Below are positions 143 through 18,760 of a stretch of 32,000 bases of DNA, piece after piece. Position 1 is the first letter of the stretch; each line of letters starts with the position of its first letter. Position numbers and translations under genes: made by a program. The notes below the pieces were generated by a model, which worked only from the letters and a program-made list of their open reading frames with translations, had not been told where the DNA came from and did not search any database. This DNA comes from Fastidiosibacter lacustris (GTDB taxonomy: Bacteria; Pseudomonadota; Gammaproteobacteria; Francisellales; Francisellaceae): the NCBI RefSeq assembly GCF_003428155.1, contig NZ_QLIR01000017.1:1-32000 (forward strand), given 5' to 3'.

Positions 143-382
143 GGTTTGGAAAGAATTCTATTATAAAAACAAATGTGCCAGATGATAACAATACCGAAAA
201 AATTATCACGTAAAGTACTTTCTCATAAGGGTTTATGGTAGGTCATGTTTTACTGATATTCATCAAAGAAGAATAATAAGGTTAAGCAACTATAAAAATT
301 TAAAATAATTTGATCGTTAATCTCCTTTCTATTTTATCAAAACCTCTTTATCCTATAGCCTGATTTTCAACACCGCTAACTT

Positions 383-1522
383 ATGGGGGATTTATGCTCG
401 ATGGAGAGAATAACCAATAAAAAACCATTGATTAGTATTCGCAATCTCACTAAGCGTTTTGATGATGGACATACTGCCGTAGATGGCATTTCTTTAGACA
501 TTTATCCAAAAGAGTTTTTTGCTTTACTTGGTAGCTCAGGTAGTGGCAAAAGTACGCTTTTACGCTTATTAGCAGGATTTGAGCAACCAACTGATGGTCG
601 AATTTTAATCGATAGTGTGGACATGACAAATGTTCCACCTTATAAACGCCCAATTAATATGATGTTTCAGTCCTATGCCTTATTTCCACATATGACAATT
701 GAGCAAAACATCATGTTTGGCTTGAAACAGGATAAACTACCAAAAAATGAAATCCTTGCACGCACAGCAGCTGCACTTAAAATTATTAAAATGGAACATT
801 TAGCAAAACGTAAGCCACATCAATTATCAGGTGGTCAGAGACAACGTGCAGCCTTAGCACGCTGCTTAGCCAAACGCCCCAAGCTAATACTACTAGATGA
901 ACCCTTGTCTGCTTTAGATAAAAACTTGCGTGATCAAATGAAATTTGAGTTAGTTGACATTCAAGAACAAACTGGTAGCACCTTTATCATGGTAACACAT
1001 GACCAAGAAGAAGCGATGACAATGGCATCTCGCATTGGTATTATGTCTGAAGGCTGGCTTGAACAAGTCAGTCCTCCACAAGAAGTGTATGAGTTTCCTA
1101 AAACCCGCTTTGTTGCTAGTTTTATCGGTAAAAGTGCTATTTTCGAGGGAATAATTGCTGAAATAAATGATGACTCTAGTACGATTGATTCTAATGAGAC
1201 AAAAAGTGTATTTAAACTTGATCGCAAAATCGAAGGTGTTGAAGGACAACAAATATGGATTGGACTTCGTCCTGAAAAAATATCCATTTCTAAGACTGCA
1301 CCAATAGATTACAATCTAGAACGACCAATTAACACCATCGTTGGCAAGGTGAAAGACATTGCTTACATGGGAGGCTTATCGACTTATTATGTAGAAAGCG
1401 CAACAGGTAAACTTATTACAGCAACAGATTTTAACGTCGAGCGCAATGCAGATCACCCCACCTGGGAAGATACCGTATACTTAACGTGGGAACCTGAAAA
1501 CATCATGGTGTTATATTCATGA
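383..1522 (+). CDS. potA: Spermidine/putrescine-type ABC transporter ATPase (PotA/PotG-like) with a C-terminal TOBE-like domain
   Basis: Walker A GSSGSGKST, ABC signature LSGGQRQR, Walker B LILLDEPLSALD, H-loop VTHD. Followed by two permease genes with an ATGA overlap. An alternative in-frame ATG at 401 lies 10 nt after GGGGGA. Confidence 0.85.
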   Translation: MGDLCSMERITNKKPLISIRNLTKRFDDGHTAVDGISLDIYPKEFFALLGSSGSGKSTLLRLLAGFEQPTDGRILIDSVDMTNVPPYKRPINMMFQSYALFPHMTIEQNIMFGLKQDKLPKNEILARTAAALKIIKMEHLAKRKPHQLSGGQRQRAALARCLAKRPKLILLDEPLSALDKNLRDQMKFELVDIQEQTGSTFIMVTHDQEEAMTMASRIGIMSEGWLEQVSPPQEVYEFPKTRFVASFIGKSAIFEGIIAEINDDSSTIDSNETKSVFKLDRKIEGVEGQQIWIGLRPEKISISKTAPIDYNLERPINTIVGKVKDIAYMGGLSTYYVESATGKLITATDFNVERNADHPTWEDTVYLTWEPENIMVLYS

Positions 1523-2430
1523 GGTTTATAATTGATTCAGTCTTGATCCACAAATGGCAAAAACGCTTTGTCATATTGGTTCCTATGTTATGGTTTATGG
1601 TGTTTTTACTTATCCCATTTTTATTTGTTTTAGCTATAAGCTTTACTGTGCCTGCGGATGGAACACCCCCTTTTAGCGCTATTTCACAATACACTGATCA
1701 CACACTTCATATTATTTTACATTTAACTAACTACATGCAAACGCTAAGCTCAAATTTGGTATTCATTGCCCTTTATGACTCAGCAAGTATTGCTCTTATA
1801 ACAACTATTCTATGTATTTTAATTGGCTATCCAATGGCTTTAGCGCTTTCGCGCATAAAAAGCAAGCACACTCAGCTTATATTTTTGATCATGATTATCA
1901 TTCCCTATTGGACATCGTTTTTATTACGAACGTATGCTTGGGTGACATTACTTGGTAACCATAAACTCAATGTTTTTCTAATGGAGTTTGGCTTGCCAAG
2001 CATGGCATTATTATATAATAATTTTTCAATGTATTTAGGCATGGTTTATTGCTACTTACCCTTTTTGGTCTTACCGCTCTATGCTATATTAATCAAGCTT
2101 GATCCAATTCTAAATGACGCTGCAGCTGACTTAGGTGCCACCCCAATTAAAACATTTTTTAAAGTAACACTACCCTTATCCATGCCTGGATTAATCGCTG
2201 GTAGTCTACTGGTTTTTATCCCTGCCGTTGGAGAAGTTGTTGTACCTCAGATCATGGGTGGGTTAAATAGCGTTATGATTGGGAGTATAATCTGGGAGCA
2301 GTTCTTTACTGCAAATAACTGGGGGATGTCAGCTGCAATGTCGGTTATCTTATTGATCATTCTTGTATTACCTGTTATTTGGATGCAAAAAATTCAGCAA
2401 CGTCAAGCTAAAGCCTCAGGAAGTTTATAA
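1519..2430 (+). CDS. potB: ABC transporter permease, PotB-like
   Basis: Multi-TM protein with EAA-loop motif NDAAADLGATPIKTFFKVTLPLSMPG. Its start overlaps the potA stop (ATGA at 1519-1522). Confidence 0.8.
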   Translation: MRFIIDSVLIHKWQKRFVILVPMLWFMVFLLIPFLFVLAISFTVPADGTPPFSAISQYTDHTLHIILHLTNYMQTLSSNLVFIALYDSASIALITTILCILIGYPMALALSRIKSKHTQLIFLIMIIIPYWTSFLLRTYAWVTLLGNHKLNVFLMEFGLPSMALLYNNFSMYLGMVYCYLPFLVLPLYAILIKLDPILNDAAADLGATPIKTFFKVTLPLSMPGLIAGSLLVFIPAVGEVVVPQIMGGLNSVMIGSIIWEQFFTANNWGMSAAMSVILLIILVLPVIWMQKIQQRQAKASGSL

Positions 2431-3246
2431 ATGCGTACCTTTTCTTACAGTAAAGTAATGCTCATTCTTGGATTGATCTTCTTATATATCCCACTTTTTA
2501 TCCTTATATTGTTTTCATTTAGTAATTCCCAAATCATCAACCTTTGGGGCGGATTTACATTAGATTGGTATAAAGCACTGTTTAATGATAGCGACATCAT
2601 TAGTGCCGCCTTAATCAGTTTGCAAATTGCGCTTATTGCCTCACTTTGTGCCACTACGTTAGGCACAATAATCGCTTATATAATGACACGCTTTGAATAT
2701 TTCCGTAGTAAAAGCTTTCTCTATGGTATGGTGATCACCCCGCTTGTCTTACCTGATATTGTATTAGGAGTATCACTTTTATTAATGTTTACTTCATTAC
2801 AAAATTTAATTGGTTGGCCACATGGTCGTGGCATGATGACCATTATTATTGCACATATCACCTTTTGTACGGCCTATGTCACAATTGTCATGCAAGCTCG
2901 AATTGCTAGCGTTGATCGTTCGATTGAAGAAGCAGCAATGGACTTAGGTGCGAAGCCTGCAAGAATCTTTTTTCAAATTACCCTGCCACAAATTATTCCT
3001 TCCCTAATTGCCTCATTTTTATTGGCATTCACACTTTCAATAGATGATTTAGTTATCACTGAATTCGTTGCTGGTAGCAGCGATCCAACCTTACCTATGT
3101 ATATCTATTCAACGGTTAAAAATGGTCCTACACCTGAAATTAATGCTCTTGCTACCATTATGATTGCAATTATTTCAACCTGTGTGGTAATCGGTGCCTA
3201 TATTGCCTTTAAAATGGAAGCCAAGAAAAAGAAAAGCAGAAAATAA
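2431..3246 (+). CDS. potC: ABC transporter permease, PotC-like
   Basis: EAA-loop motif EEAAMDLGAKPARIFFQITLPQIIPS. The ATG directly abuts the potB stop (TAAATG). Confidence 0.8.
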   Translation: MRTFSYSKVMLILGLIFLYIPLFILILFSFSNSQIINLWGGFTLDWYKALFNDSDIISAALISLQIALIASLCATTLGTIIAYIMTRFEYFRSKSFLYGMVITPLVLPDIVLGVSLLLMFTSLQNLIGWPHGRGMMTIIIAHITFCTAYVTIVMQARIASVDRSIEEAAMDLGAKPARIFFQITLPQIIPSLIASFLLAFTLSIDDLVITEFVAGSSDPTLPMYIYSTVKNGPTPEINALATIMIAIISTCVVIGAYIAFKMEAKKKKSRK

Positions 3247-3340
3247 TACAACAGGAAAGATAAAACCTTGCTACTAGAAATCTCAACTAAGGCACCATCA
3301 ATAAAAAAATCTGCAAGTTTAACAATTACTTTTCACGGCG

Positions 3341-4327
3341 TTATAAGTCTAAATTATTACGCTTAAATACACGATCAGCACGATAACTTGAACGCACCAT
3401 AGGTCCTGAAGCTACTTCTAAAAATCCTTTTTCAAGACCAATCTGGCGATATTCCTCAAATTCTTTTGGAGTGACAAAACGCTCAATCACCAAGTGATGC
3501 TTAGTCGGCTGCATATATTGACCTAGCGTTAAAATATCAACTCGTGCTAAGCGTAAGTCATCCATTGTTTTAAGCACTTCTTCTTTTGTCTCGCCCAATC
3601 CTAACATTAGACTCGTTTTAGTTAATACCTTTGGATTTTGCTGCTTGACATATTTCAAGACGTTAATTGTTTGCCAATAACCCGCACGAGGATCACGCAC
3701 AACATATGTTAAGCGTTCAACTGTTTCAACGTTTTGGGCGAAAACATCCATGTCCGTCTTAAGCAGTTTATCGATATGCTCATGTTTCCCCTGGAAATCT
3801 GGTGTTAACGCTTCGACCTTAATCGTAGGGCTAAGCGCTTTGATTTCATTAATCGCCTGCGCATAATGACCTGCACCACCATCTTCTAAATCATCTCGAT
3901 CGACTGAGGTTAACACCACATATTCCAAGCCCATAAGCTTAACACTTTCTGCTGCATTTTTTGGCTCATCACGATCCAGCCACCCTTTGGGATTACCTGT
4001 ATCCACTGAACAAAACTTACACGCTCTCGTACACACACTTCCCATTAACATAATCGTTGCTGTACCGTGCGACCAACATTCGTTAATATTAGGGCATTTT
4101 GCTTCTTCACATACCGTTGACAAGCGATGTGTTTTAGTAATGGATTTCACTTTACGGTAGGTTTCGCTTGAGTCCTGCTTAGCTACTTTTAACCAATCTG
4201 GTTTTTGAATGCGAACTGGATTGACCTTACTATTTTTAATGCCATCTTTTACTGCACTAAAGCCCAGCTCAGTTTGGTATTTCTCACCGCTTTCCACTTT
4301 AACTGGGATATCAATTAATTTAGTCAT
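3341..4327 (-). CDS. lipA: Lipoyl synthase (radical SAM)
   Basis: Auxiliary cluster motif [12 protein letters not shown] (CX4CX5C) and radical-SAM motif CTRACKFC (CX3CX2C), at typical LipA length. The ORF-track start at 4339 is TTG; the first ATG (MTKLIDIPV) is at 4327. Confidence 0.93.
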
Positions 4328-4386
4328 TAGAGATATCAACTAACACTTAAAACTGTGGCTCATCATGACAAAACTTATTCCTAGTT

Positions 4387-5625
4387 TCAAGTGTTATGTG
4401 AGTAATAACGCATTGCCCATGCAAAGAAAACAGCAGACAACACAAAAATTAAAAACCATGTAAAGATCGCAATTGAGCCCACTCCAAGCCCAAAGATATA
4501 AACACCTAAATAACTACCCACACCCAAGCCAAGCGAGCTAGTACACAAATTGTAGAAAGACATATTGGCTTTGAGTTTTGTAGGGTCTTTTTCATTCGAG
4601 ATAGCAATAACAGAAACTTGTGGCGCGATAATCTCACCAAGCGTAAAGAGTAAAATGCAAAAATAAAGCCAAGGTAATGATTCAGCTTGAAAAGTAAATA
4701 AAACTAATGCGACACAAGAGGCTCCGATACCTAAAGTATATTGAAAGCTATAATTTTTAATTCTTGCAACAAGGTTAATAACCTTGATTGTCATAAAAAT
4801 AAGCAAGATAGAATTCAAAGTAAAAATACTCGAAATAACAGCTGTATATTCGTGATAATTTTGCTTAATCATCAGCGTAAAATAAGTATATATTTGTGCT
4901 TCAAAGATAAAATGAAAGAAACTTGCAATGCCAATCAATAAAGTCTTTTTATTGACTCTAAATGACAAAAGCATTGGTTGGCGTTCAGTTTTTTTGGTTG
5001 TAGTAGGTGTTGAAATAACTCTTACCACCAAGCATGCTGAAATCAAAAAACATAACAAGGAAAAAAATAGAACTCCTTGAAAGCCTGCTAATTTTAGCAT
5101 TAACGCACCAATAAGAGGTCCCATGGCTCCACCTAAACTATTAACCATTTTAATATAGGCAAAAAGCTTAGTTGTATCGCTTTGATTCACTAAGTACTCA
5201 AGTTGTAATACTCTGGAATAAGTAAAGTATATGCCGAGACTGAAACGATAAAGCAGTAAGCATAGAAGAATTAAAATATATGCTACCTGTAAAAATAAAG
5301 AGCTAAGATAACAAAATACAATGGCAACGCCCAAAAGAATAATTGTCAGAAAAAACCCTTTTTTTGACGCCTTGCTTGGCAATAAATTTACCAGAATGTA
5401 GGCGGAAAAATTCCCAACAATCATCCCAATAAGCATTAAAAAACCAATATCATTAACGGATATTCCGCTAAAAATAGGAAGTTCAACAACAACATATGGA
5501 AAAAAAGCGAACATCCCAACACATGAAAGCATCATAACAATAAGTAATAAATAGTTATTTTTTGAAAAATTAGGATTTAACCGCCTTAATGATTGCCTCA
5601 AAGAAATCTGCCTCATTTTATTCAT
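4387..5625 (-). CDS. MFS transporter, probable exporter of the upstream operon's product
   Basis: About 412 aa and highly hydrophobic, with a multi-TM profile consistent with 12 TMS. The track start at 5631 is TTG; the ATG at 5625 overlaps the upstream ATP-grasp stop by 8 nt (ATGAATAA). Confidence 0.75.
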   Translation of the reverse strand: MNKMRQISLRQSLRRLNPNFSKNNYLLLIVMMLSCVGMFAFFPYVVVELPIFSGISVNDIGFLMLIGMIVGNFSAYILVNLLPSKASKKGFFLTIILLGVAIVFCYLSSLFLQVAYILILLCLLLYRFSLGIYFTYSRVLQLEYLVNQSDTTKLFAYIKMVNSLGGAMGPLIGALMLKLAGFQGVLFFSLLCFLISACLVVRVISTPTTTKKTERQPMLLSFRVNKKTLLIGIASFFHFIFEAQIYTYFTLMIKQNYHEYTAVISSIFTLNSILLIFMTIKVINLVARIKNYSFQYTLGIGASCVALVLFTFQAESLPWLYFCILLFTLGEIIAPQVSVIAISNEKDPTKLKANMSFYNLCTSSLGLGVGSYLGVYIFGLGVGSIAIFTWFLIFVLSAVFFAWAMRYYSHNT

Positions 5626-6796
5626 ACTCAAATTTTACGTTCTGATAAATACCATCAACCACATCGTTATGTGTCTTAGGATTATTTGCAAAGGCAATAA
5701 AAAAACCAGGTCTATCATAAGATGAGCTCCCAAGTTGCGGAGTCTCAAAAATAGCTGCTCGTATTTCATAACTTGCAACATGTGGGTTTATTCTCATACG
5801 CTCTTGACCAATAACACATTTGACCTTATGCAAAGTTGGGTTAAAAAAGTTTGTAGAACACACTATAGTGTTTGGTGAAACTTTTAATGAAGGCAAGCTT
5901 AAGCGCATACGCTGTCTGATAGTTAACTCATACAAGTCTATTCCTGTCTTTAAATATACAAGATCAGGGATGCTATCCCCACCAACGCGGTTATGAGATT
6001 CGATGATAAAGCAACTACCACCATCAACGATAACTTCTGTATGATATGCTCCATTTTCTACGTTCATATCACACAAAAACTGAATAACTGTGTCATGAAT
6101 TAGCGCATTAACGTTTGCAGGAATTTCCTCTCCAATAATATGCCTTTGCTCGACAAACTTACTATCAGCAGTTTGGTAAAGCATCTTTTTAGTAATTGCT
6201 AGAATATTATGCTGGGTATTACATGAGAAACTCTCAACGGAATATTCAATTCCATGAATAAATTTTTCCGCAATCAAAGGCGATGAACAATCAATTTGTG
6301 CTATGTCACTCCAAGATTCAACTTTAGAAACATTCTGACTACCCACACCACTCTTAGGCTTGGTAATAATCGGGGCTTTGATTTGGTTATAAAAATCAAT
6401 CAACTCCTTACGGTGGGTGATGGAACAAAATGGAACGCTATAGGGTTTTGTTGCTATAAACTCGCGCATAGCAACTTTATCTTTTAATTTTTGAGTAATC
6501 ACTAACTCGTTTTCCCAACCTAATCCCAACTCTTTATTAAGCAAAGCAGCACTAATAAGGGCATCTTCCCTTAAGGTAACAATGGCTTGAACTTTATGAT
6601 GTTTCAGAAAGGAAACCATGCAATCAAGATTATTATGGTCTCCATAGTCAAGTAACAAACACTGATCAGCCAAAGCACGTGATCTATCAGTAACTTCTTG
6701 TGCTTTATGAATCAAAACAACTGAAAGCTTTAATTGTTTCGCTCGATCCAGTAACAGCTCATTACTGCCAATAAATGCAATTTTATTCATCTGCAT
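5618..6796 (-). CDS. ATP-grasp enzyme, L-amino-acid-ligase-like (ligase 2)
   Basis: ATP-grasp motifs PIITKPKSGVGSQNV, LIAEKFIHGIEYSVE and HTEVIVDGGSCFIIESHNRVGGDSIPDL (the E-x-N-x-R-x-G Mg/ATP site). About 390 aa, as in BacD/RizA/TabS-type ligases. Alternative ATG at 6790 (MNKIAF). Overlaps the upstream gene. Confidence 0.75.
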   Translation of the reverse strand: MQMNKIAFIGSNELLLDRAKQLKLSVVLIHKAQEVTDRSRALADQCLLLDYGDHNNLDCMVSFLKHHKVQAIVTLREDALISAALLNKELGLGWENELVITQKLKDKVAMREFIATKPYSVPFCSITHRKELIDFYNQIKAPIITKPKSGVGSQNVSKVESWSDIAQIDCSSPLIAEKFIHGIEYSVESFSCNTQHNILAITKKMLYQTADSKFVEQRHIIGEEIPANVNALIHDTVIQFLCDMNVENGAYHTEVIVDGGSCFIIESHNRVGGDSIPDLVYLKTGIDLYELTIRQRMRLSLPSLKVSPNTIVCSTNFFNPTLHKVKCVIGQERMRINPHVASYEIRAAIFETPQLGSSSYDRPGFFIAFANNPKTHNDVVDGIYQNVKFEYE

Positions 6797-8036
6797 ACAC
6801 CTCTACTGCAATTTTTTGTGATGTGCTTTCAATAAAATTAATCGCCTGTGATGTGGAGCTAAAAGTTTGTATTACAAAACCCAAACGATCTTCTGTACTG
6901 GTTAACCCTTTTATTTTCTTTGGAAGTTGGGCAAGGTGAGTTTTATGACTGTGCTCAAAGTTGCTGCCAATTTTAAGTTGACTCACCTCTCCTTCTTTAG
7001 TTGAAAATAAAAAGCAAATGGCGGCATAAGTTTTTCCTTCACTTTGCTGTTGCTTTTTGTCTAACTCCAATGCTTCAAACCTAATTCCAAGGGATGCGCG
7101 TAGATATAATGCGATAGGATCTATGTGTTTGGCGAGTTTCATCAGCTCAGGAATCTGATCCCCACCAACTCGAGGATTGATTTCTATTAATTTTAGAACA
7201 CCACCTATAACTTTAAACTCTACATGGGCAAAGCTATTTTTAAAACCTATTGTTGCAAGCACTTCTTTTAGCTGCAATTCAACCTCTTTTTCAAATTGAG
7301 CATCTCCAAATGGGAAAATATGCCCAACTTCAACGCAATATGGAGGAGGAGAAACAAATTTCTTTGTCACTCCCAATAATAACCACTCATTTAAATCAGG
7401 ATTCCAAACCATTTCTGCACTATACTCATCACCTGGAATATACTCTTCAACGAGGATTTTTGTCGCAATCTGATACCCTCTACAATTTGGTGAAGTGAGC
7501 TGATAAATATTATTGACAGCCTCGATAAACTCTTCATTGCTGTGACAAATTTTCACCCCAACACTTCCACTTTCATCATTTGGCTTAACGACACAAGGAT
7601 AACCAATTGGACTAGAGTCGTATTTTTGTTTAAAGTCAATGACCTCATATGCCACTGATTGTTTAAGGTGGCTAACAGCTTTTCGCATTATATCTTTAAA
7701 ACGGCAGGCAAGTATTGACTCCAAAGTAGCACCTTTATGAGTATATTTAGCATTTAAAATAGCTGCCTGAACAATCCGAAAATCATCAAAAGCAACAATA
7801 ACCTCTATCTTTTCAGATTCCTTTTCATCCTCAAAAAAATGAAGCAGCTTTGTAATATCATAGGTATTAACTTCATGAACCTCATCAGCAAAAGTGCATG
7901 GATTAATAACTGCATCAGCATATTCTGTCATGTTAGTACAGATGAATTTCACTTTGTAACCAAGCTTTTTCGCTTCACTAGTTGCTATAGCTGCATTCCC
8001 TGCCATATTGCTCTCCAATAGGTAAATACATGACAT
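6783..8036 (-). CDS. ATP-grasp enzyme, L-amino-acid-ligase-like (ligase 1)
   Basis: Motifs YPCVVKPNDESGSVGV, ILVEEYIPGDEYSAE and HVEFKVIGGVLKLIEINPRVGGDQIPEL. A strong RBS (AAGGAG) lies 7 nt upstream of the ATG at 8036. Confidence 0.75.
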   Translation of the reverse strand: MSCIYLLESNMAGNAAIATSEAKKLGYKVKFICTNMTEYADAVINPCTFADEVHEVNTYDITKLLHFFEDEKESEKIEVIVAFDDFRIVQAAILNAKYTHKGATLESILACRFKDIMRKAVSHLKQSVAYEVIDFKQKYDSSPIGYPCVVKPNDESGSVGVKICHSNEEFIEAVNNIYQLTSPNCRGYQIATKILVEEYIPGDEYSAEMVWNPDLNEWLLLGVTKKFVSPPPYCVEVGHIFPFGDAQFEKEVELQLKEVLATIGFKNSFAHVEFKVIGGVLKLIEINPRVGGDQIPELMKLAKHIDPIALYLRASLGIRFEALELDKKQQQSEGKTYAAICFLFSTKEGEVSQLKIGSNFEHSHKTHLAQLPKKIKGLTSTEDRLGFVIQTFSSTSQAINFIESTSQKIAVEVYADE

Positions 8037-8099
8037 TTTTTTCTCCTTCTAGTTAGCTTTTTAAAATCAAGTTACACTATATAACTTTAAAAGTGGTGA

Positions 8100-9473
8100 T
8101 TAAATTAAACTCTTTAAGCAGGCTGTTAGCTCATTCTCAAAGGCTCTTGTTAATAGCTTTCTTCCTTCATGAAAACCACTTAAGTCAAGTTTGCCTGAAT
8201 AAGTATGGTGTTCGATCAAGTCTGTCCCATTTAGAATTCTTTTGCTAAGTTGGAGCTCAGTTTTCTGTTGAGCCAAATATGTTTTTTTCAGCCCAACTGA
8301 CGAATATGCCACTCTAATTTTGATTTTATCAAATCCCATTGTAATAGCCGGAGATAGCGCTAATTTGAAATTCCTTAATGCGTAACTTGAAAAATCAAGG
8401 CTATTTCTTATAGACAATGCTTTGACCTTCTTTTTTGCGAGTAATTGATCAAAACACAGTACAATGCCATGTCCTGATTCTGGTTGATGCAAAACTGAAA
8501 CTAATTCTTCTTTCAGGCTATGGTTTATCTCTTTTACCAACATATTTATAATTCCCACCCTTTTTTTGCATTCAACGCTATTTTCTTCAAAATAGCTCTT
8601 TGGAATGCAAAAAGCCGCAGACACCATATCACCCAGTATTTTGGGGATAGTGGCAGAACGACTGATAATAAATGAGTTGATCTCAGAAATTATTTCCCGC
8701 GACCCACAACACCATCCTATGCGTAAATTTGCTAGGTTAAATCGCTTAGAAGCGCTCTTAACGGTAATAACTTTGTCAGCATACTCTTTGAAAGCTTCTA
8801 GTTGAGGCGTTCTGTTGGAAAAATCAAATTCTGTACCTGAAAATACGCTATCAACGATAACCCAAATCTGATAATCATAAGCAACTTGAGCAAGTTTTTT
8901 CAATTCACACTTCGTATATATCGCTCCGCTATGGGTAGGATTTTGCAGGAAAAGTCCATTTATTTGTTTATTCTCATTAAGATAAAGGATTAACTCTTCT
9001 GCTGTTAATTTATAATCGCTATCTAACTTGGTATATAAATGATTTAGATTACCTCCATACAATGAAAACCATTTAGGAACATTGTGGTAATAAGAGGTTG
9101 GTATGACAAAATGAAGGGAACCAAGCTTTTGTTTTAAAATTTGTAGAATCGAACAAATAAGCGTTGAAGATCCAAAATCAATTGCAATATTTTTTGCAAT
9201 ATCTTGATCAATACCATCTTCAATAAAATCTGAGAAAATATTGTGCTTTAATTCATCATGTTCTTGCAAGTACAAATAATCATCCAAAGAGCCATTTACA
9301 GAATCTAATAACGACACAATTCCTTTAGTAAGGACATCAGGATGAGGTCTTCTTATCCCGTCACCATGCGCCAAAGAAACGATATCCTTATCAAACATTG
9401 AAGGATATAATTTTAGTTCAGAGTCATTAATCCCGCCCAGTATTTTTCTTGCTTCAGTGAGATGCTTAAGCAT
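8100..9473 (-). CDS. PLP-dependent aminotransferase, fold type I (class I/II)
   Basis: LQNPTHSGAIYT resembles the NPxNPTG motif, VIVDSVFSG carries the PLP-ring Asp region, and SASKRFNLANLRIGW is the SxSK Schiff-base lysine plus GxRxG. The start overlaps the upstream gene's stop by 8 nt (ATGCTTAA). Confidence 0.8.
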   Translation of the reverse strand: MLKHLTEARKILGGINDSELKLYPSMFDKDIVSLAHGDGIRRPHPDVLTKGIVSLLDSVNGSLDDYLYLQEHDELKHNIFSDFIEDGIDQDIAKNIAIDFGSSTLICSILQILKQKLGSLHFVIPTSYYHNVPKWFSLYGGNLNHLYTKLDSDYKLTAEELILYLNENKQINGLFLQNPTHSGAIYTKCELKKLAQVAYDYQIWVIVDSVFSGTEFDFSNRTPQLEAFKEYADKVITVKSASKRFNLANLRIGWCCGSREIISEINSFIISRSATIPKILGDMVSAAFCIPKSYFEENSVECKKRVGIINMLVKEINHSLKEELVSVLHQPESGHGIVLCFDQLLAKKKVKALSIRNSLDFSSYALRNFKLALSPAITMGFDKIKIRVAYSSVGLKKTYLAQQKTELQLSKRILNGTDLIEHHTYSGKLDLSGFHEGRKLLTRAFENELTACLKSLI

Positions 9474-10605
9474 GAATTAACTCCCATTTTTCAGCGAACT
9501 TCTTATAGCGTGAAGCTAACTCCCAAGCATGTACCTCAATATTTTTAGTATCAATGTTCTTGCAATAATAACCCAAAACAGAGTGCACAATCTCGACAGA
9601 GGCATCCATGAGAATGACTCTCCCATCCTCCGTAATTTCTTGAATACCATCAAATTGCTGACCAAGTTTATTGATTTGTATGGCTTGCTCTAGAGTAACA
9701 TCTTCTGGGAGGTCAAATTGATATTGTCCAGCTTTTATTTGCAATGGATAGCCTCCAATTAACCCCATAGGTCCTGGCGCATGAACTGAAGTAAATTCCT
9801 TATTAGTAAAGGCCTGTATTAACCTGGCTGCTGAAGAAGCAGTAATCCACATTCCATCTTTTCCACGTGGGCGAGTAAGCTCTGTTTTCACTAAATTAAA
9901 AATATCATCATGAGAGATCCCAACTAAAAGATCCTCTCCATTTCTATCTCTTGCTTCCAGTATGTATGGGGCTTTAGATTGTCCTTGTGATGGAATAGCA
10001 TTGCTGACTGCATGGTGGCAAACCATCTTTACGTGCACTTCATGTACATTGATCTCATGTTTTAATGCAATAGCAGATTGTATGGCAGGAACTATATTGG
10101 CAACATTACCTATTCCAATATCAGGGGAGAGTCCAAGTGTTTTTAAAGCCGGATTTATAGCATCTGGAAATGCTGAGTTAATCACAATACCTTTGATTCC
10201 ACTTTGTTTATATGCCTTCATTAACTTATAAACAGGCGCAAGATGCATAGGAATCCACGGTCCAATACCAGCTAAAGAAAGCGCTTTGTAAATTGGCTCT
10301 GGGAGACTTGAAATTACCCAATAAGACTGCATAGTTGCTGTATTAAAGATTATATCAGGGTTGAGTTCTTTTAGCGTGCACGATGTTTCTTCAACATTGT
10401 CTAGATCAATATTTACATGACGTATAGTTATATGATTATTCAGATTAAGTGAAGACAATGAGGCAAGATTTACCAGTTGCTTTCCTCTAAGACTATTTCT
10501 AGTTCCAATGATAATTTCAACTTGCTTAGGCTCTAGCAACGTCCAACTTAACATTTTTGTTACCATAGACGCCAAAACACCATTCCCTATAATTAACAAT
10601 TTCAT
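9466..10605 (-). CDS. NAD(P)-binding Rossmann oxidoreductase, saccharopine-dehydrogenase-like (tentative family call)
   Basis: N-terminal MKLLIIGNGVLASMV (GxGxxA). The beta-alpha-beta spacing, followed by NPDIIFNTAT and GIVINSAFP, resembles Sacchrp_dh_NADP-type proteins. The ATG at 10605 directly follows GGAGGGAAGGAA, whereas the track start at 10656 has no RBS. Confidence 0.5.
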   Translation of the reverse strand: MKLLIIGNGVLASMVTKMLSWTLLEPKQVEIIIGTRNSLRGKQLVNLASLSSLNLNNHITIRHVNIDLDNVEETSCTLKELNPDIIFNTATMQSYWVISSLPEPIYKALSLAGIGPWIPMHLAPVYKLMKAYKQSGIKGIVINSAFPDAINPALKTLGLSPDIGIGNVANIVPAIQSAIALKHEINVHEVHVKMVCHHAVSNAIPSQGQSKAPYILEARDRNGEDLLVGISHDDIFNLVKTELTRPRGKDGMWITASSAARLIQAFTNKEFTSVHAPGPMGLIGGYPLQIKAGQYQFDLPEDVTLEQAIQINKLGQQFDGIQEITEDGRVILMDASVEIVHSVLGYYCKNIDTKNIEVHAWELASRYKKFAEKWELIHA

Positions 10606-10656
10606 TTCCTTCCCTCCTACAGGTATTCCTTCTTGATTAATACTATTAAAGTCCAT

Positions 10657-10684
10657 AATATAGTCATCCTACAAAACGAAACAA
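10657..10684 (-). promoter_or_regulatory. Candidate sigma70 promoter for the biosynthetic operon
   Basis: Minus-strand TTGTTT, 16 nt, TATATT, ending about 50 nt upstream of the ATG at 10605. AT-rich background makes chance matches likely. Confidence 0.25.
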
Positions 10685-10730
10685 TACCACAAAAAATAAG
10701 ATTATCAAAAATAAATCTCAAACTGTAAAA

Positions 10731-11420
10731 CTAAAGAAATTCTATTGCATTTTTCATCTGCCAGATTTTGATTTCCCAACCATTCTTGAGTGCAAGTTTT
10801 TTAAGCTTAGGATCTGGATTAATGCAAATAGCTTGATCAACAATTTCTAGTAATGGTGCATCGTTAATTGAGTCAGAATAAAATATGCTGTTTTTAAATA
10901 GTTTTTGTTGTTGAGCAAGCCATTGCTGATAATGATAAACTTTCCCTTCAGCAAAGCTCAGAGGCTCAAGCACTTCTCCTGTGATTACCCCATTTTCCTT
11001 GATGCTTTGTACACCAATAATATTATCTTCTTCAAACCCAAGCAATAAACCAATTGGACGAACAATGTCAATTATACTGGCTGAAATAAGTAGAATTTTA
11101 CCACCTTGAGCTATACTCTTTTGGATGGTATGATATGCCTCAGGATAAGTACATTCATTGACAATATATTCGGCAAAATTATTAAATATTTTTTGCAAGT
11201 CATCACTGCTATAGCCAATCAGCGGTTGCAATATAAAACGAGAAAAGCCAAGCATATCAACTTGACCTTCAAGATAAGCGCGGGCATAGGCATTTTTAGT
11301 TGCCATATAAGCTTTTGGGTTATTCACAAAGTTTTGTTGACAGAGATATTTTGTCCACTCATTAGAGCAGTCAACAGAAATAAGAGTATGGTCAAGATCA
11401 AAAAGAGTGATGTTAGGCAT
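10731..11420 (-). CDS. HAD-superfamily hydrolase, subfamily IB (SerB-like phosphatase fold)
   Basis: Motif I FDLDHTL (DxDxT) at the N-terminus, motif II LISAS, motif IV YSDSINDAPLL. 229 aa. Separated by about 125 nt from the downstream oxidoreductase gene, so operon membership is uncertain. Confidence 0.75.
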   Translation of the reverse strand: MPNITLFDLDHTLISVDCSNEWTKYLCQQNFVNNPKAYMATKNAYARAYLEGQVDMLGFSRFILQPLIGYSSDDLQKIFNNFAEYIVNECTYPEAYHTIQKSIAQGGKILLISASIIDIVRPIGLLLGFEEDNIIGVQSIKENGVITGEVLEPLSFAEGKVYHYQQWLAQQQKLFKNSIFYSDSINDAPLLEIVDQAICINPDPKLKKLALKNGWEIKIWQMKNAIEFL

Positions 11421-11472
11421 TATAATAAATTCTTACATATTTATGTTGCTTTAGTTTACATGACACTTCCCA

Positions 11473-11492
11473 CATTGCACTAGAGTGCAATG
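11473..11492. promoter_or_regulatory. 20-bp near-perfect palindrome in the divergent HAD/recN intergenic region (candidate operator)
   Basis: CATTGCACT-AG-AGTGCAATG: 9-bp perfect arms around a 2-bp centre, read directly from the sequence. Confidence 0.3.
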
Positions 11493-11632
11493 CAACTTGC
11501 AGCACAGTTTTTATCATACCTCTTATAATAATTTAGAATTATCAAACCCACACCCCTCAATGATATTTTAAAAGATTTTTGCCTTAAGATATGTTAAATT
11601 TTTGGTACACTGTGTTTGATACGAAAGAGCCT

Positions 11633-13294
11633 ATGCTAAGTTTTTTGAGTATTAAAAATTTTGCCATCATCAAAAGCACTGAAATCCATTTTAAACAAGG
11701 CATGACCACTATTACCGGAGAAACTGGTGCTGGAAAGTCAATCTTGTTAGATGCACTTAATATTGTGCTAGGTGCAAGAGTTGACAAATCGAATTATCCT
11801 CAGAGTGAACCTTGTGAAATCTCCGCTATTTTTATTATTAAAGATATTCCTGAAGCAATACGTTTTCTAGAAGAATTGGAACTCAATGAAGGCAGTGAAT
11901 GTATTTTACGGCGCATTATCCATCATGATGGTAAAAACCGTGCTTTTATTAATGGTGCTCCAGTCACGTTAAACCAACTCAAAACATTAAGCCCGTACCT
12001 TATTAGTATTTATGGTCAAAATGCGCATCACAGTTTACTTGAATCAGCTAATCAACTCTTACGTTTAGACACTTATGCAGGTCTTATCAATGAAATTGAG
12101 TCACTTTCACAAACTTATAAAACTCTAACTGAGCTTACTCATGCTATCACTGACGAAGAAGAGAAAATTGCTAAGGAAAAAATAGCTTTGGTCTTGATGC
12201 AGTATCAATATGATGAACTTAAACAACTTGAATTGAAAGAAGATGAACTTCAGCAATTAGATAGTGATCACAAGCAACTAGCTAATGCTAAAGGACAAAT
12301 TCAAGCTATTGCGCAGATAAGCGATATTGTAAATGACAGTGAACAAAGTTTATTAAGTATGATAGATCACCTATTAAATAGCCTATATTCTTATAGTGAA
12401 CAGCCACAGTTCAAAAACATATTAGAACTACTTACACAAGCTAAAGTCTATCTCCAAGAATGTGATCAAGAAGCAAAATCAATTCTTAATCAGTTGGAAG
12501 TCAATCCTGAGAAGCTCTATGAGGTTGAGCAAAGACTCGATCATATTTATAAGCTTGCTCGTAAACATAAAGTCGAACCGAAATTATTATATCAACATAT
12601 CGCAGAACTTGAACAAAGCTTATCCCTTCACGATCAAAGTGAACAAAAGCTAAAAGAATTAATCGCACAAAAAGATGTGCTGCAACAAAGTTATCTTAAC
12701 CTGGCCAAAGACCTAAGTAACAAGCGTCAAATAGCAGCTAAAGCATTTGCTAAAGAGATTGAAACACATATTCATAAGCTTAATATTCCTAAAGGCGAAT
12801 TTTATGTCAAACTCACACCAAGCAAAACACAGCAGGCGACAGGGATAGACCACTGCGAATTTTTGATTAACTTTAACACAGGACAACAAGCTGCTGTAAT
12901 TGACAAAGTCGCTTCAGGTGGAGAATTAAGTCGTATTGGTTTAGCTATTCACGTCGTTTCTTCTAAAAAAATAGCACCTCCTACTATTATTTTTGATGAA
13001 GTAGATGTAGGAATTAGTGGTGGCACTGCTGAGATCGTTGGCAAACTATTAAAACAGGTTTCACAAAATGCCCAAATTCTCTGTATCACTCATCAAGCAC
13101 AGGTGTCCATTCAAGGCGATCAACAACTTCATATTGTTAAAAAACACCTCAAAGATCATACGGTTTCTGAAATCATTGAGCTTGATAAAAATCAGCGAAT
13201 TCACGAAACTGCTCGCATCATTGGTGGTGTTGAGATGACCGATAAAACCTTACAGCATGCAAAAGAGATGTACGAACTTTATCATTTGCAATAA
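11633..13294 (+). CDS. recN: DNA repair protein RecN
   Basis: Canonical N-terminus MLSFLSIKNFAII, Walker A GETGAGKS, long coiled-coil middle, SMC signature SGGELSRIGLAI, Walker B IIFDEVDVG. 553 aa from the ATG at 11633, preceded by GAAAGAG; the track start at 11591 adds 14 atypical residues. Confidence 0.95.
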   Translation: MLSFLSIKNFAIIKSTEIHFKQGMTTITGETGAGKSILLDALNIVLGARVDKSNYPQSEPCEISAIFIIKDIPEAIRFLEELELNEGSECILRRIIHHDGKNRAFINGAPVTLNQLKTLSPYLISIYGQNAHHSLLESANQLLRLDTYAGLINEIESLSQTYKTLTELTHAITDEEEKIAKEKIALVLMQYQYDELKQLELKEDELQQLDSDHKQLANAKGQIQAIAQISDIVNDSEQSLLSMIDHLLNSLYSYSEQPQFKNILELLTQAKVYLQECDQEAKSILNQLEVNPEKLYEVEQRLDHIYKLARKHKVEPKLLYQHIAELEQSLSLHDQSEQKLKELIAQKDVLQQSYLNLAKDLSNKRQIAAKAFAKEIETHIHKLNIPKGEFYVKLTPSKTQQATGIDHCEFLINFNTGQQAAVIDKVASGGELSRIGLAIHVVSSKKIAPPTIIFDEVDVGISGGTAEIVGKLLKQVSQNAQILCITHQAQVSIQGDQQLHIVKKHLKDHTVSEIIELDKNQRIHETARIIGGVEMTDKTLQHAKEMYELYHLQ

Positions 13295-13401
13295 CCATAA
13301 CAAAAACCAAAGTGCATAATTCAAAGTGATAAAATCTGTAAAATGGTTTGTGATAGGTATATAATAATGCCACTTCACTCAAAGTATAAAAAAATTTCTA
13401 A

Positions 13402-14208
13402 ATGTTGATTTATCCACAAATTGACCCCGTTGCATTTTCACTTGGTCCAATTAAAGTACACTGGTATGGCATTATGTATCTTGTGGGCTTTGCTGGGGCG
13501 TGGGCTCTTTCACTTATCCGTTGCAAAAAACCATATAGTCCGATTAATAAAGACCAAGTTTCTGATATGATTTTTTATGCAGCTTTGGGCGTTATCGTAG
13601 GCGGACGCCTTGGCTATATGGTTTTTTATGATTTATCTAATTTCATCAGTGCACCTTGGGTTATTTTTAAAGTCTGGGATGGTGGCATGGCATTTCATGG
13701 TGGTTTAATCGGAGTGATTCTTGCAATCTCCTTATTTTGCCGCAAACATAAATGTAATGTTTTTGATATTCTTGATTTTATTGCTCCTATGGTGCCGATT
13801 GGACTAGGTGCTGGACGATTGGGTAATTTTATAAATGGTGAGCTTTGGGGGCGTGTAACAGATTCCCCGATTGGAATGATTTTTCCAAATGGCGGTCCTT
13901 TGCCACGTTATCCTTCCCAGTTATTGGAGTTTGCATTAGAAGGAGTGGTATTGTTTGTTATTTTATGGTTTTTATCACGTAAGAGACGACCTCGTTTGTT
14001 TATCTCAGCAAATTTCTTGGTATGGTATGGACTCTTTAGATTCATTGCTGAGTTTTTCCGTCAACCTGATTCACAAATGGGTTATATGCTATTTGACTGG
14101 ATGACGATGGGACAATTATTATCTTCACCTATGATTATTTCTGGGCTTTTAATCTTACTATATCTTTCGATGCAAAATAAGAAATCTACTCAAATCCATA
14201 AGGAGTGA
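13402..14208 (+). CDS. lgt: Prolipoprotein diacylglyceryl transferase
   Basis: [11 protein letters not shown] and [14 protein letters not shown] signature motifs in a polytopic membrane protein. The lgt-thyA adjacency matches that in enterobacteria. Confidence 0.93.
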
Positions 14209-14210
14209 CG

Positions 14211-15044
14211 ATGCAACAATACCTTGACTTTCTACGTTATATAAATAGCCATGGCATAGTTAAAACAGATCGCACAGGCACAGGTACTAAAAGCATTTTT
14301 GGCTATCAGATGCGCTTTGATTTAACAAAAGGTTTTCCGCTTGTCACCACCAAAAAAGTCCATTTTAAAAGTGTAGTTTATGAGCTTTTATGGTTTTTAA
14401 AAGGCGATACCAACAACAATTACCTTCTTGAGCACGGCGTACGCATTTGGAATGAGTGGGCGCTGGAAACCGGAGACCTTGGTCCTATTTATGGCAAACA
14501 ATGGCGTAGCTGGCAAACGCCTACAGGAGAGACAATAGATCAAATTCAACAAGCCATTGATCTAATCAAATTTCGTCCAGACTCAAGGCGTATTATTGTA
14601 AATAGTTGGAATCCTGCGGTTTTACCAGACGAATCCCTCTCGCCTCAACAAAACGTTAAAAAGGGAAAAGCAGCATTGCCACCTTGTCACACTTTGTTTC
14701 AATTTTATGTCGCAAATAATAAACTTTCGTGTATGCTCACTCAACGCTCGGCTGATGCGTTTTTAGGTGTGCCATTTAATATTGCTTCATATGCCTTATT
14801 AACATATATGGTTGCACAACAATGTAATTTAGAAATTGGCGAGTTTATCTGGTCGGGTGGTGATTGCCATATTTACAGTAATCATCATGAACAAATACAA
14901 GAACAACTTTCACGTAACCCTTTTCGATTACCAACGCTTTCTATCAATCGTAAACCTGAGTCTATTTTTAGCTATGAGTTTAATGATTTTGAGGTCGTAA
15001 ACTATCAATTCCATCCCACAATAAAAGCTCAGGTTGCCGTATAA
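14211..15044 (+). CDS. thyA: Thymidylate synthase (ThyA type)
   Basis: MQQYLDFL start, DRTGTGT, catalytic [25 protein letters not shown]-terminal AQVAV. AAGGAG lies 6 nt before the ATG at 14211; the track start at 14205 is GTG and overlaps the lgt stop. Confidence 0.97.
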
Positions 15045-16285
15045 TGACACAACAAATGACCTCTTTAAATAAAGCTGCTATTAAAGTTCTTCTACTTGAA
15101 GGCATCCATGAACAAGCGCAAAACGCTTTTATTCAAGCAGGTTACAACAACGTACAAACGCTCCCACATGCACTAGATGACGATGCACTCATTATCGCTT
15201 TACAAGATATTAAAGTTGTGGGAATACGATCACGTACACAATTAAGCGAAAAAGTACTTAAAGCATGCTCTCACCTGATCGCTATTGGTTGTTTTTGTAT
15301 TGGCACTAACCAAGTAGATTTAGATGCTGCACAAATTTTAGGCATTCCAGTTTTCAATGCTCCTTTCTCAAATACACGTAGTGTCGCTGAGCTTGTAATC
15401 GGTCAAATGATTTTACTTTATCGTAACGCTATAGATAAAAACATCCAAATGCACCGTCAAAATTGGCTAAAATCAACAGCTGGTGCACATGAGGTGCGTG
15501 GGAAAACACTTGGTATTATCGGTTATGGGCACATCGGATCTCAAGTAAGCGTACTCGCTGAAAATTTGGGATTGAATATCCTTTTTTATGATATTGAAAA
15601 CAAGCTCCCATTAGGCAATGCCAAAGCATGTGCTAGCATTTTTGACTTATTAAAACAATCTGATATCGTCACACTTCATGTGCCTGATACACCTAGCACA
15701 CAAAACATGATTGGTCAAAAAGAGCTAAGCTTGATGAAGGAAGGAAGTGTTCTTATTAATGCTTCACGTGGTAACGTTGTGGATATTAAAGCACTTTCTG
15801 ATGCACTTAAGTCAGCACATTTAAAAGGTGCTGGAATCGATGTTTTTCCTAAAGAGCCTTCTAAGAATGGAGAATTATTTGAAAGTGAACTTATTGGGTT
15901 AAATAACGTATTTTTAACACCTCATATTGGAGGTAGCACACTGGAAGCCCAACAAAACATAGGTCTTGAAGTTGCTGATAAGCTTATTAAATATAGTGAC
16001 AACGGCTCAACTATTTCAGCAGTGAATTTCCCTGAGCTTTCTTTACCCACACAAGCAAACGTCCATAGAATCTTGCATATCCATGAGAATAAACCAGGCA
16101 CGATGCGTGCAATCAACCGTGTTTTTTCTGACCATAACATTAACGTTGAAGGACAATTTTTAAGAACACTTAATAATATTGGTTATGTGGTTATAGATAT
16201 TAATAGTATTGAGGATACTTCACGTGTACTCGTGCAACAATTAAAAGCGATTGACGGTACTATTCGCTCACGTGTCTTATTTTAA
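15044..16285 (+). CDS. serA: D-3-phosphoglycerate dehydrogenase with C-terminal ACT domain
   Basis: NAD-binding GIIGYGHIGSQV, catalytic region TPHIGGST, ACT-like tail HRILHIHENKPGTMRAINRVF. 413 aa. The ATG shares one nt with the thyA stop (TAATG). Confidence 0.92.
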   Translation: MTQQMTSLNKAAIKVLLLEGIHEQAQNAFIQAGYNNVQTLPHALDDDALIIALQDIKVVGIRSRTQLSEKVLKACSHLIAIGCFCIGTNQVDLDAAQILGIPVFNAPFSNTRSVAELVIGQMILLYRNAIDKNIQMHRQNWLKSTAGAHEVRGKTLGIIGYGHIGSQVSVLAENLGLNILFYDIENKLPLGNAKACASIFDLLKQSDIVTLHVPDTPSTQNMIGQKELSLMKEGSVLINASRGNVVDIKALSDALKSAHLKGAGIDVFPKEPSKNGELFESELIGLNNVFLTPHIGGSTLEAQQNIGLEVADKLIKYSDNGSTISAVNFPELSLPTQANVHRILHIHENKPGTMRAINRVFSDHNINVEGQFLRTLNNIGYVVIDINSIEDTSRVLVQQLKAIDGTIRSRVLF

Positions 16286-16288
16286 AAC

Positions 16289-18545: not shown

Positions 18546-18760
18546 TTTAAAATTTTCACCTTTTATCTAGGTTCTGTGAACCAAAAAAACTACATAAGTA
18601 TTTTACATTCCAAATGCCTTGTGTTAAAGACAAATGAGCAGAGTCTTGCGCATAAATGTTATAGTTTGCTGCCTCAAAAAGGAGATGATAATAGAATTTA
18701 TGACGCCATCAAATATTATTAAGAATTACGACAGCTATCAGGTGGATGGAGGTAATTTAA

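Follow-up and report, generated by a model that had tools for sequence, protein, structure and literature searches.

A conserved, scattered gene cluster with two ATP-grasp ligases and an oxidoreductase of an unnamed family in Fastidiosibacter lacustris: a candidate NRPS-independent biosynthetic operon

Clusters that build peptides with ATP-grasp ligases, independently of nonribosomal peptide synthetases (NRPS), are known, and the di- and tripeptide antimetabolites made by ATP-grasp enzymes are few (bacilysin, dapdiamides, tabtoxin, rhizocticins), each of them having revealed new enzymology and a new target. The bacilysin bac operon combines oxidoreductases, the class-I aminotransferase BacF, the ATP-grasp ligase BacD (YwfE) and BacE, an exporter of the major facilitator superfamily (MFS), and makes the unusual residue first, ligation coming after. 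The dapdiamide (DdaA-I) and tabtoxin (TabS/TblF) clusters, leading to Trojan-horse di- or tripeptide antimetabolites, use two ATP-dependent amide ligations, a non-proteinogenic amino acid and MFS efflux. Triads of a dehydrogenase, an aminotransferase and a phosphatase are known from the synthesis of serine (SerA/SerC/SerB), kanosamine (NtdC/NtdA/NtdB) and puromycin (Pur10/Pur4/Pur3); in the case of puromycin the triad is followed by the ligase Pur6, which aminoacylates the new amine, and by the MFS exporter Pur8. A three-gene azasugar cluster also follows the dehydrogenase, aminotransferase, phosphatase logic (PMC8382821). Here we describe an operon with elements of both kinds, found in a 32,000-nt stretch of Fastidiosibacter lacustris (contig NZ_QLIR01000017.1, positions 1 to 32,000; hereafter, the window).

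Five consecutive intact open reading frames (ORFs) occupy the minus strand at 4387-10656, in agreement with a preliminary description of this DNA, made from the sequence alone, which had listed five co-directional genes. They comprise an oxidoreductase (OXR), an aminotransferase (AT), two ATP-grasp enzymes (AG1 and AG2) and an MFS transporter; PLP is pyridoxal phosphate and AspAT, aspartate aminotransferase.

9466..10656, minus strand: OXR, ORF of 396 aa; NAD(P)-type Rossmann oxidoreductase of an unnamed family (RefSeq WP_116964460, 'hypothetical protein')
8100..9473, minus strand: AT, 457 aa; class-I/II (fold-type I) PLP aminotransferase, AspAT/prephenate-aminotransferase-like
6783..8036, minus strand: AG1, 417 aa; ATP-grasp enzyme of the L-amino-acid-ligase type
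5618..6796, minus strand: AG2, 392 aa; second, paralogous ATP-grasp ligase, possibly starting at the inner ATG (6790)
4387..5631, minus strand: MFS transporter, 414 aa; presumed exporter, possibly starting at the inner ATG (5625)
10609..10730, minus strand: AT-rich leader upstream of OXR, candidate promoter region, 122 nt
8037..8099, minus strand: spacer between AT and AG1, 63 nt, holding an AAGGAG ribosome-binding site

The best explanation for these genes is that they represent a single copy of an NRPS-independent biosynthetic cluster that is conserved and horizontally scattered, and judging from the encoded proteins this cluster most likely makes a small, unusual peptide with neither ribosome nor NRPS and exports it. 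We propose, with a probability of about 0.55, that a phosphorylated primary metabolite is processed by a dehydrogenase, a transaminase and a phosphatase, then enters two ATP-grasp amide ligations and is exported by the MFS protein. In this scheme OXR and the AspAT-like AT would form a building-block module: OXR would oxidise the hydroxyl of a phospho-hydroxy-acid or of a sugar or polyol phosphate to a carbonyl, and AT would turn this carbonyl into an amine, most likely an alpha-amino acid. A HAD phosphatase, encoded within the cluster in most other copies and acting in trans in the window organism, would strip the phosphate. AG1 and AG2 would form one ATP-dependent amide bond each, yielding a tripeptide-like molecule with an unusual residue, and this product would leave the cell through the MFS protein.

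The likeness to the described systems is one of analogy. With bacilysin the proposal would share the order of residue synthesis and ligation, and the comparison with the bac operon made in the preliminary description stands as far as a class-I aminotransferase, a ligase and an MFS exporter are concerned; it does not extend, however, to the prephenate decarboxylase/isomerase genes, as none of the BacA/BacB type is present in 4387-11420, or to the ligase itself, AG1 reaching 20.6 bits with the BacD model, whose cut-off is 850. Bacilysin further differs in having one ligase instead of two and in its short-chain dehydrogenases BacC and BacG, unrelated to OXR, whereas the family of the window operon has a recurrent phosphatase. 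The proposal resembles the dapdiamide and tabtoxin clusters in its two ligations, non-proteinogenic residue and efflux, but the building-block enzymes of the latter are different (SbnA/SbnB-like DdaA/B, or a beta-lactam synthetase), and of the dapdiamide ligases one belongs to the adenylating enzymes, unlike the two ATP-grasp ones of the window. The triads, as far as general knowledge and gene content allow the analogy, would share with the proposal the three-step logic on a phosphorylated substrate, although the enzymes are non-homologous: OXR belongs to a new family, AT resembles AspAT instead of DegT or GabT, and the phosphatases are of the TIGR01459 or HAD-IA type. The peptide-ligating part is of a known kind, and the building-block module, especially OXR, is new. 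A literature search returned no paper describing the cluster, the OXR family, or a TIGR01459 phosphatase in such a role.

For comparison, 185,579 species genomes were scanned with the OXR alignment, and the 80 loci obtained were searched with the window proteins; a search for AT homologues added Serratia entomophila and Vibrio spp. For high-GC loci pre-called genes were used, as gene calling based on the GC content of third codon positions (GC3) was too noisy. All five genes have colinear orthologues (28-44% identity) in S. entomophila, Vibrio mediterranei and a coral metagenome-assembled genome (MAG), the last holding a complete colinear OXR-AT-AG1-AG2-MFS set. The identity between the window and S. 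entomophila proteins is 43% for OXR, 41% for AT, 44% for AG1, 40% for AG2 and 33% for the transporter. AG1 orthologues from Serratia, Vibrio, the MAG, Alkalihalophilus and Dactylosporangium are 35-44% identical to the window protein, AG2 orthologues, 28-40%, and the transporters, whose place in the operon is shared by Serratia, Vibrio and the MAG, 28-34%. The arrangement is more than chance, for these five genes turn up in an identical order in bacteria that are not related. The reading of the locus as an NRPS-independent biosynthetic operon, borne out by the domain content, is strengthened by the conservation of the gene set across phyla.

Other copies vary in order and content. In both Serratia and V. 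mediterranei the operon order is HAD-OXR-AT-AG-AG-MFS; the V. mediterranei operon is bracketed by insertion sequence (IS) elements, and 1.8 kb separate the Serratia one from a siderophore locus of the aerobactin type. An Alkalihalophilus plasmid carries a rearranged set, OXR-AG-AG-AT-HAD-MFS, and a plasmid of Bacillus sp. ZJS3 has three ligases (MFS-AG-OXR-AG-AG-AT-HAD). Dactylosporangium has OXR-AT-HAD, five methionine-salvage genes, three ligases and an MFS gene, and in Streptomyces the cluster is enlarged, five ligases being joined by a class-II aldolase, a PALP enzyme and redox enzymes. OXR-AT pairs or sets of OXR with ligases were observed in Dactylosporangium, Streptomyces, Roseibium and others. 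A RibD gene beside OXR on the Alkalihalophilus plasmid was considered as a cluster member and set aside; it is lacking in the related Bacillus plasmid, and therefore is probably incidental. In total, three phyla and at least seven genera are represented in the cluster family, and the ligases number from two to five. The set had been called an orphan, which holds in the sense that no characterised cluster or paper in the literature searched matched it, but it is not a one-off, being a member of a conserved family. A compact five- to six-gene cluster is thereby delimited in culturable, genetically tractable Serratia, Vibrio and Streptomyces, and the Serratia operon makes the product accessible by heterologous expression.

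The accessory status of the cluster is seen in a near-isogenic genome, GCA_024208055.1, which is 99.6-99.8% identical to the window over 160-8355 and 11232-19483. It lacks window positions 8356-11156 (2.8 kb), that is, the whole OXR gene, the larger share of AT and the 3' part of a HAD-IB gene (10731-11420) located directly upstream of the operon. A 1.3-kb RES-Xre toxin-antitoxin cassette is inserted in this HAD gene (locus L094, 8259-9653), flanked by a 6-bp target duplication (window 11232-11237). The remaining genes carry lesions: a nonsense change in AG2 (window 5952) and a 1-nt deletion causing a frameshift in the MFS gene (window 5438). Given the deletion and the lesions, the cluster is therefore dispensable and decaying in this genome, which fits joint working of the five genes and a dispensable accessory nature of the unit that they form. 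In the same genome recN is called as two fragments of 353 and 203 aa (L094 6196-7899; window 11591-13294), which could mean a true pseudogene or, alternatively, a fault of the assembly; this tempers the argument from decay after loss, since some lesions of the cluster could reflect assembly quality. For metabolomics, GCA_024208055.1 is a natural knock-out. Genomic-island signatures of the window operon were considered and rejected: there is no tRNA near the operon, no flanking repeats were found, and the composition is that of the flanks.

These data bear on the possibility that the operon has a housekeeping or physiological role, for instance in making osmolytes, cofactor tails or a siderophore-like chelator, or in modifying the cell envelope. 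ATP-grasp ligases also make cofactor tails and osmolytes, the Serratia operon is a close neighbour of the aerobactin-type locus, and the codon usage matches that of the host; however, the distribution across phyla is patchy, with plasmid and IS association, and the cluster is lost and decaying in a 99.7%-identical genome. In addition, AT is very rare (9 clusters at E<=1e-30 in a word-indexed search of a 5.8 billion-protein collection, in which only the 8,000 candidates sharing most words were scored), and no cluster genes accompany the HAD orthologue in Cysteiniphilum. We consider such a role quite improbable.

The phosphorylated substrate of the proposed pathway is suggested by the association of OXR with phosphatases. 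A HAD gene was observed within 5 kb of OXR in 44 of the 80 loci. A HAD of the TIGR01459 family is the first gene of the Serratia and Vibrio operons and follows AT in Dactylosporangium and Roseibium; all four score above the cut-off for this uncharacterised family, and a Mesorhizobium HAD is annotated as TIGR01459 by RefSeq. The Bacillus-group copies have instead a HAD-IA protein unrelated to TIGR01459. It is thus the phosphatase function that is conserved rather than the protein, and this non-orthologous replacement argues that the pathway needs phosphatase activity, while the recurrence of the phosphatase in the cluster family points to a phosphorylated precursor. The preliminary inventory, right about the five genes of the window, had not foreseen the phosphatase usual in the family.

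The HAD-IB gene upstream of the window operon was tried as a sixth cluster gene and rejected. Its closest relatives are proteins of Cysteiniphilum, a member of the same bacterial family (66-68% identity), and one of Facilibium (52%), the Cysteiniphilum orthologue lies beside lysS/prfB with no cluster nearby, and the protein is unrelated to both the TIGR01459 and the HAD-IA phosphatases of other copies. It could nevertheless act in trans for the window operon.

The same enzymes also occur without ligases. In Roseibium and Labrenzia we observed OXR-AT-HAD-EamA with no ligase, and as OXR, AT and HAD are thus seen beside an EamA exporter only, they look like a building-block module. On the Mesorhizobium plasmid pMLa (L095 3706-8146) OXR stands beside alr-DMT-TIGR01459, encoding alanine racemase, a DMT exporter and the phosphatase; such neighbours of OXR occur on plasmids and chromosomes of rhizobia, and all of them together on pMLa. 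By its gene content, this rhizobial set appears to be another small exported-metabolite module built around OXR. Taken with the Roseibium and Labrenzia sets, it follows that OXR, a PLP enzyme, a phosphatase and an exporter behave as a self-contained module, which circulates without ligases and whose key enzyme is outside named families. As a tentative extension, which we regard as possible rather than probable, OXR, an AspAT-like transaminase and a TIGR01459-type phosphatase might constitute a new three-enzyme module making an exported non-proteinogenic amino compound from a phosphorylated primary metabolite, the version with ligases seen in the window, Serratia, Vibrio, Bacillus-group plasmids and actinomycetes giving a new class of small peptide antimetabolites or signals.

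OXR itself matched no model of Pfam or NCBIfam and no PDB sequence. It has 145 homologues at 34-43% identity, mostly annotated as 'hypothetical', and the family is rare (518 representatives at E<=1e-30 in a profile search of 1.84 billion representative proteins). The motifs GxG, VINxAxPD, GIGNxAN and HAPGxxGxxGGYP are invariant in the family alignment, and GNGVLA occupies aa 24-29. By these sequence features the OXR family is new and has no family assignment, with NAD(P)-dependence predicted; if so, OXR might found an undescribed NAD(P)-dependent enzyme family. The true start of OXR is probably ATG 10608, giving a protein of 380 aa, so that the RefSeq model of 396 aa would be too long, because this ATG is preceded by a strong Shine-Dalgarno sequence (GGAGGGAAGG) and all 18 of the 18 aligned homologues begin at its position.

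The AlphaFold (AF2) model of OXR, computed from an alignment of 19 sequences, has a pLDDT of 91.7. In a Foldseek search against PDB the top 50 matches were all lactate or malate dehydrogenases (LDH/MDH; E 6e-11 to 2e-9), with a TM-score of 0.47-0.56, a root-mean-square deviation of 5-8 A and 11-17% identity, and none of these 50 had a saccharopine dehydrogenase (SDH) fold. The model, a confident Rossmann-plus-alpha/beta one, is as a whole nearest to LDH/MDH. Neither Ldh_1_N nor Ldh_1_C matched OXR, whose two-domain fold resembles that of this family but which has its own invariant motifs and apparently no substrate arginine: by a motif reading of the alignment, GIGNVANIVP replaces GxGxxLDxxR, so that Pro190 would occupy the Arg171 position of LDH/MDH and Asn187 that of the catalytic Asp, His215 being nearly invariant.

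OXR had been described as SDH-like. This part of the preliminary description is retained only for a weak likeness of the N-terminal Rossmann domain, seen at the level of the family. Sub-threshold matches to Sacchrp_dh_NADP occur in 13 of the 19 family members (best, 4.8e-7), and the family profile finds carboxyspermidine dehydrogenase (8deb, 9e-5) and SDH (4ina, 2e-4) in PDB over about 100 aa at the N-terminus; but the window protein has no match to Sacchrp_dh_NADP even at E<=1, no Pfam match to Sacchrp_dh_C was obtained for any of the 19 members, and the whole fold is nearest to LDH/MDH. Thus, the N-terminal NAD(P) Rossmann domain weakly resembles that of saccharopine and carboxy(nor)spermidine dehydrogenases, and the likeness is confined to this domain.

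The fold of OXR brings in an alternative resembling VanH/VanA, in which AT would deaminate a standard amino acid, the 2-oxo acid so obtained would be reduced by OXR to a 2-hydroxy acid, and an ATP-grasp enzyme would form an ester or amide with the latter, giving a depsipeptide. Such a route would suit an OXR nearest in fold to 2-hydroxy-acid dehydrogenases of the LDH/MDH type and an AT of the bona fide 2-oxo-acid transaminase type, and ATP-grasp enzymes such as VanA do ligate hydroxy acids; but OXR apparently lacks the carboxylate-binding arginine, the recurrent phosphatase would have no role, and the ligase-free OXR-AT-HAD-exporter sets would yield merely a common hydroxy acid. We judge this route to have little probability.

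AT matches Aminotran_1_2 (1.8e-24, 87 bits), and its PLP lysine is Lys243 in the SASK motif. Lys243, Asp208 (contacting PLP-N1) and Arg387 (for the alpha-carboxylate) are invariant in 13 orthologues. The family shares the N-terminal motif HGDGxRRPHP; as conservation among the orthologues includes the first 25 residues and the longer ORF also gives the 8-nt overlap with OXR, the start yielding 457 aa is probably right and the RefSeq model of 432 aa too short, the segment at issue being 9399-9473. In profile comparisons the AT family scored 1e-33 with AspAT/prephenate aminotransferase, 8e-21 with the synthase of 1-aminocyclopropane-1-carboxylate (ACC) and 5e-16 with GntC. The nearest folds to the AT model (pLDDT 78) found by Foldseek are prephenate aminotransferase, the Legionella AspAT Lpg0070 and a Thermus AspAT, BacF being at rank 33, and there is no ACC synthase among the top 50. 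Since both profile and fold are nearest to AspAT/prephenate aminotransferase and the top 50 hold no ACC synthase, AT reads as a true transaminase as far as sequence and model can tell, and the earlier assignment to fold-type I PLP aminotransferases is confirmed by the Pfam match, the SASK lysine and the fold matches.

A different use of AT would be a route from S-adenosylmethionine (SAM), where an ACC-synthase- or GntC-like 'AT' would perform gamma-elimination or replacement on SAM, releasing methylthioadenosine, while an SDH-like OXR would make or cleave a secondary amine, and the ligases would extend the resulting diamino or aminocarboxypropyl block. It draws on the full methionine-salvage set embedded between HAD and the ligases of the Dactylosporangium operon (L081 13497-17437; L003 13282-18515), which consists of MtnA, MtnB, ARD, an MtnC-like/enolase-phosphatase-like HAD and a PNP_UDP_1 nucleoside phosphorylase, one Dactylosporangium species having an extra transaminase in this region; this set is a hint that, in Dactylosporangium, SAM is consumed or a residue derives from methionine. 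GntC is also the best NCBIfam match of AT, at 81 bits and far under the cut-off, and the OXR N-terminal domain weakly resembles carboxyspermidine dehydrogenase and SDH. However, the ACC-synthase-like reading of AT is disfavoured by the profile scores and the fold ranking given above, the C-terminal domain of OXR has no SDH match, the salvage genes occur in one genus only, and the conserved phosphatase would be unexplained. An SbzP/altemicidin-like annulation of NAD and SAM (PMC13518217) has no sequence support in AT, as the SbzP homologue PsePQ is not among its PDB sequence matches. A SAM route is thus unlikely.

For the ligation steps of the proposed pathway, both AG1 (3e-24, 85.8 bits) and AG2 (7.5e-12, 45.6 bits) match ATP-grasp_4 (cut-off 27), AG2 also matching ATP-grasp_3 and ATPgrasp_N. 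They are paralogues with 26% identity. LAL_C2 is weak in both (17.5 bits in AG1 and 18.4 in AG2 vs a cut-off of 29.4), and the Dactylosporangium and Alkalihalophilus ligase orthologues have recorded LAL_C2 matches. The L-amino-acid ligase BL00235 (3vot) is the best PDB match of AG2 (7.8e-9) and the second best of AG1 (2.8e-6), whose other top match is the uncharacterised ATP-grasp protein 4dim. Among NCBIfam models AG1 best matches PRK02186, in its N-terminal ATP-grasp half (1.7e-44, under the cut-off), and the DdaF model gives 46.8 bits with AG2 and 30.9 with AG1 (cut-off 840). The primary-metabolism models of NCBIfam all remained far under their cut-offs, at 16-48 bits vs 143-1027: Ddl (48 vs 404 bits), purT (19.5 vs 502), purD (18 vs 288), rimK (22 vs 143), cyanophycin synthetase (16.5 vs 877) and CPSase (18.6 vs 599). 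The ligases thus lie outside those families, membership in which the preliminary description had named as the outcome that would speak against it. From these matches AG1 and AG2 are assigned to ATP-grasp enzymes of the L-amino-acid-ligase type, with peptide-bond formation predicted.

The transporter matches MFS_1 (1.7e-16, 60.5 bits), has about 11 hydrophobic segments and weakly matches the H+ antiporter subfamily TIGR00900; by its sequence it is presumed to be an exporter. The two ATP-grasp ligases and the multi-membrane-span MFS protein are therefore as first described. The motifs and domains named at that stage are recovered to a large extent: GNGVLA in OXR, SASK in AT and E-x-N-x-R-x-G in AG1 (E-I-N-P-R-V-G, aa 285-291) fit exactly, but AG2 has an inexact variant shifted by one residue (E-S-H-N-R-V-G, aa 266-272); Aminotran_1_2, ATP-grasp_4 (twice) and MFS_1 are found, but OXR has neither a Pfam nor an NCBIfam match. 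A 29-nt direct repeat (5961-5989 and 7144-7172, 79% identical) encodes the R-V-G-G-D-x-I-P-x-L motif shared by AG2 and AG1; it was considered as a mobile-element scar, which we reject in favour of the conserved ATP-grasp motif.

Several observations weigh against the proposed pathway and the horizontal origin. GC, GC3 and codon usage of the operon equal those of the flanks, so that this comparison, suggested in the preliminary description, gave no sign of foreign origin. The window and MAG copies have no cluster-encoded phosphatase, and the HAD-IB gene is a vertically inherited, histidinol-phosphatase-like gene of the housekeeping type. The TM-score of OXR to LDH/MDH is only about 0.5, and with OXR appearing to lack an equivalent of Arg171 to bind the carboxylate of a 2-hydroxy acid, a simple 2-hydroxy-acid substrate is therefore doubtful; class-I aminotransferases, in turn, seldom act on sugar ketones. 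The methionine-salvage genes inside the Dactylosporangium copy are unexplained by the scheme. Finally, the oxidation, transamination, two amide bonds and export envisaged in the preliminary description find matching enzyme classes, but we infer the chemistry throughout from the genes: the reaction order, the identity of the substrate and its phosphorylation, and the amide-forming role of both ligases are putative, and so would be any regiochemistry of ligation, direction of transport or bioactivity assigned to the product.

The genes of the operon are tightly packed. OXR and AT overlap by 8 nt (ATGCTTAA, read directly from the sequence), and ATGAATAA is the reading at both the AG1/AG2 and the AG2/MFS junctions, where the overlap is 8 nt if counted from the inner ATG and 14 nt from the outermost start codon. 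The 63-nt gap between AT and AG1 terminates in AGAAGGAGAAAAAAATG, with the spacing AAGGAG-N7-ATG, and has no terminator-like site on the coding strand. The junctions had been described as three overlaps of 8 nt and a 63-nt gap with AAGGAG; the gap and the OXR/AT overlap are as stated, while the other two are 8 nt only from the inner ATG. A precursor peptide gene is rejected, since there is no room for it between the ORFs.

In the leader, sigma-70-like hexamer pairs are TTTACA-17-GATAAT (10729-10701) and TTGATA-16-TATTGT (10708-10681). However, promoter-like sites in this region are no commoner than in shuffled sequence (24 vs 28.7 +/- 5 expected), and the promoter placed by the preliminary description at about 10657-10684 is unproven. 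A search of the leader against Rfam gave no riboswitch or leader-RNA match.

The flanks of the operon contain housekeeping genes (383-3246 and 15044-16285), including an ABC ATPase with two permeases (PotABC-like), and also lipA, recN (11591-13294), lgt and thyA. The flanks also encode a 2-hydroxy-acid dehydrogenase of the SerA type, which has an ACT domain and is unrelated to OXR.

Outside the cluster family, OXR genes have other neighbours. The commonest context (26 of the 80 loci) comprises HAD_2, transaldolase/FSA, a sulfotransferase, an SDR, OXR, a methyltransferase and an MFS gene (L083 4511-11242, also L022-L078), with PAPS-synthesis genes, APS kinase and a PAPS_reduct/CysD-like gene often coming next, and was found in Pseudomonas, Streptomyces and Salinarimonas. 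Its gene content suggests a sulfated, methylated, sugar-derived metabolite as the product, and again involves sugar-phosphate enzymes. In bins of Desulfobacterales, NC10 and Chloroflexi, OXR is preceded by a kinase of the choline-kinase/APH type, not by a phosphatase (L091 3952-6225; L008, L009, L011, L013, L017, L019), and this kinase again ties the OXR family to phosphorylated substrates. In Neorhizobium (L090 6823-11997) and other Rhizobium loci a LuxR/LuxI pair is also located beside OXR.

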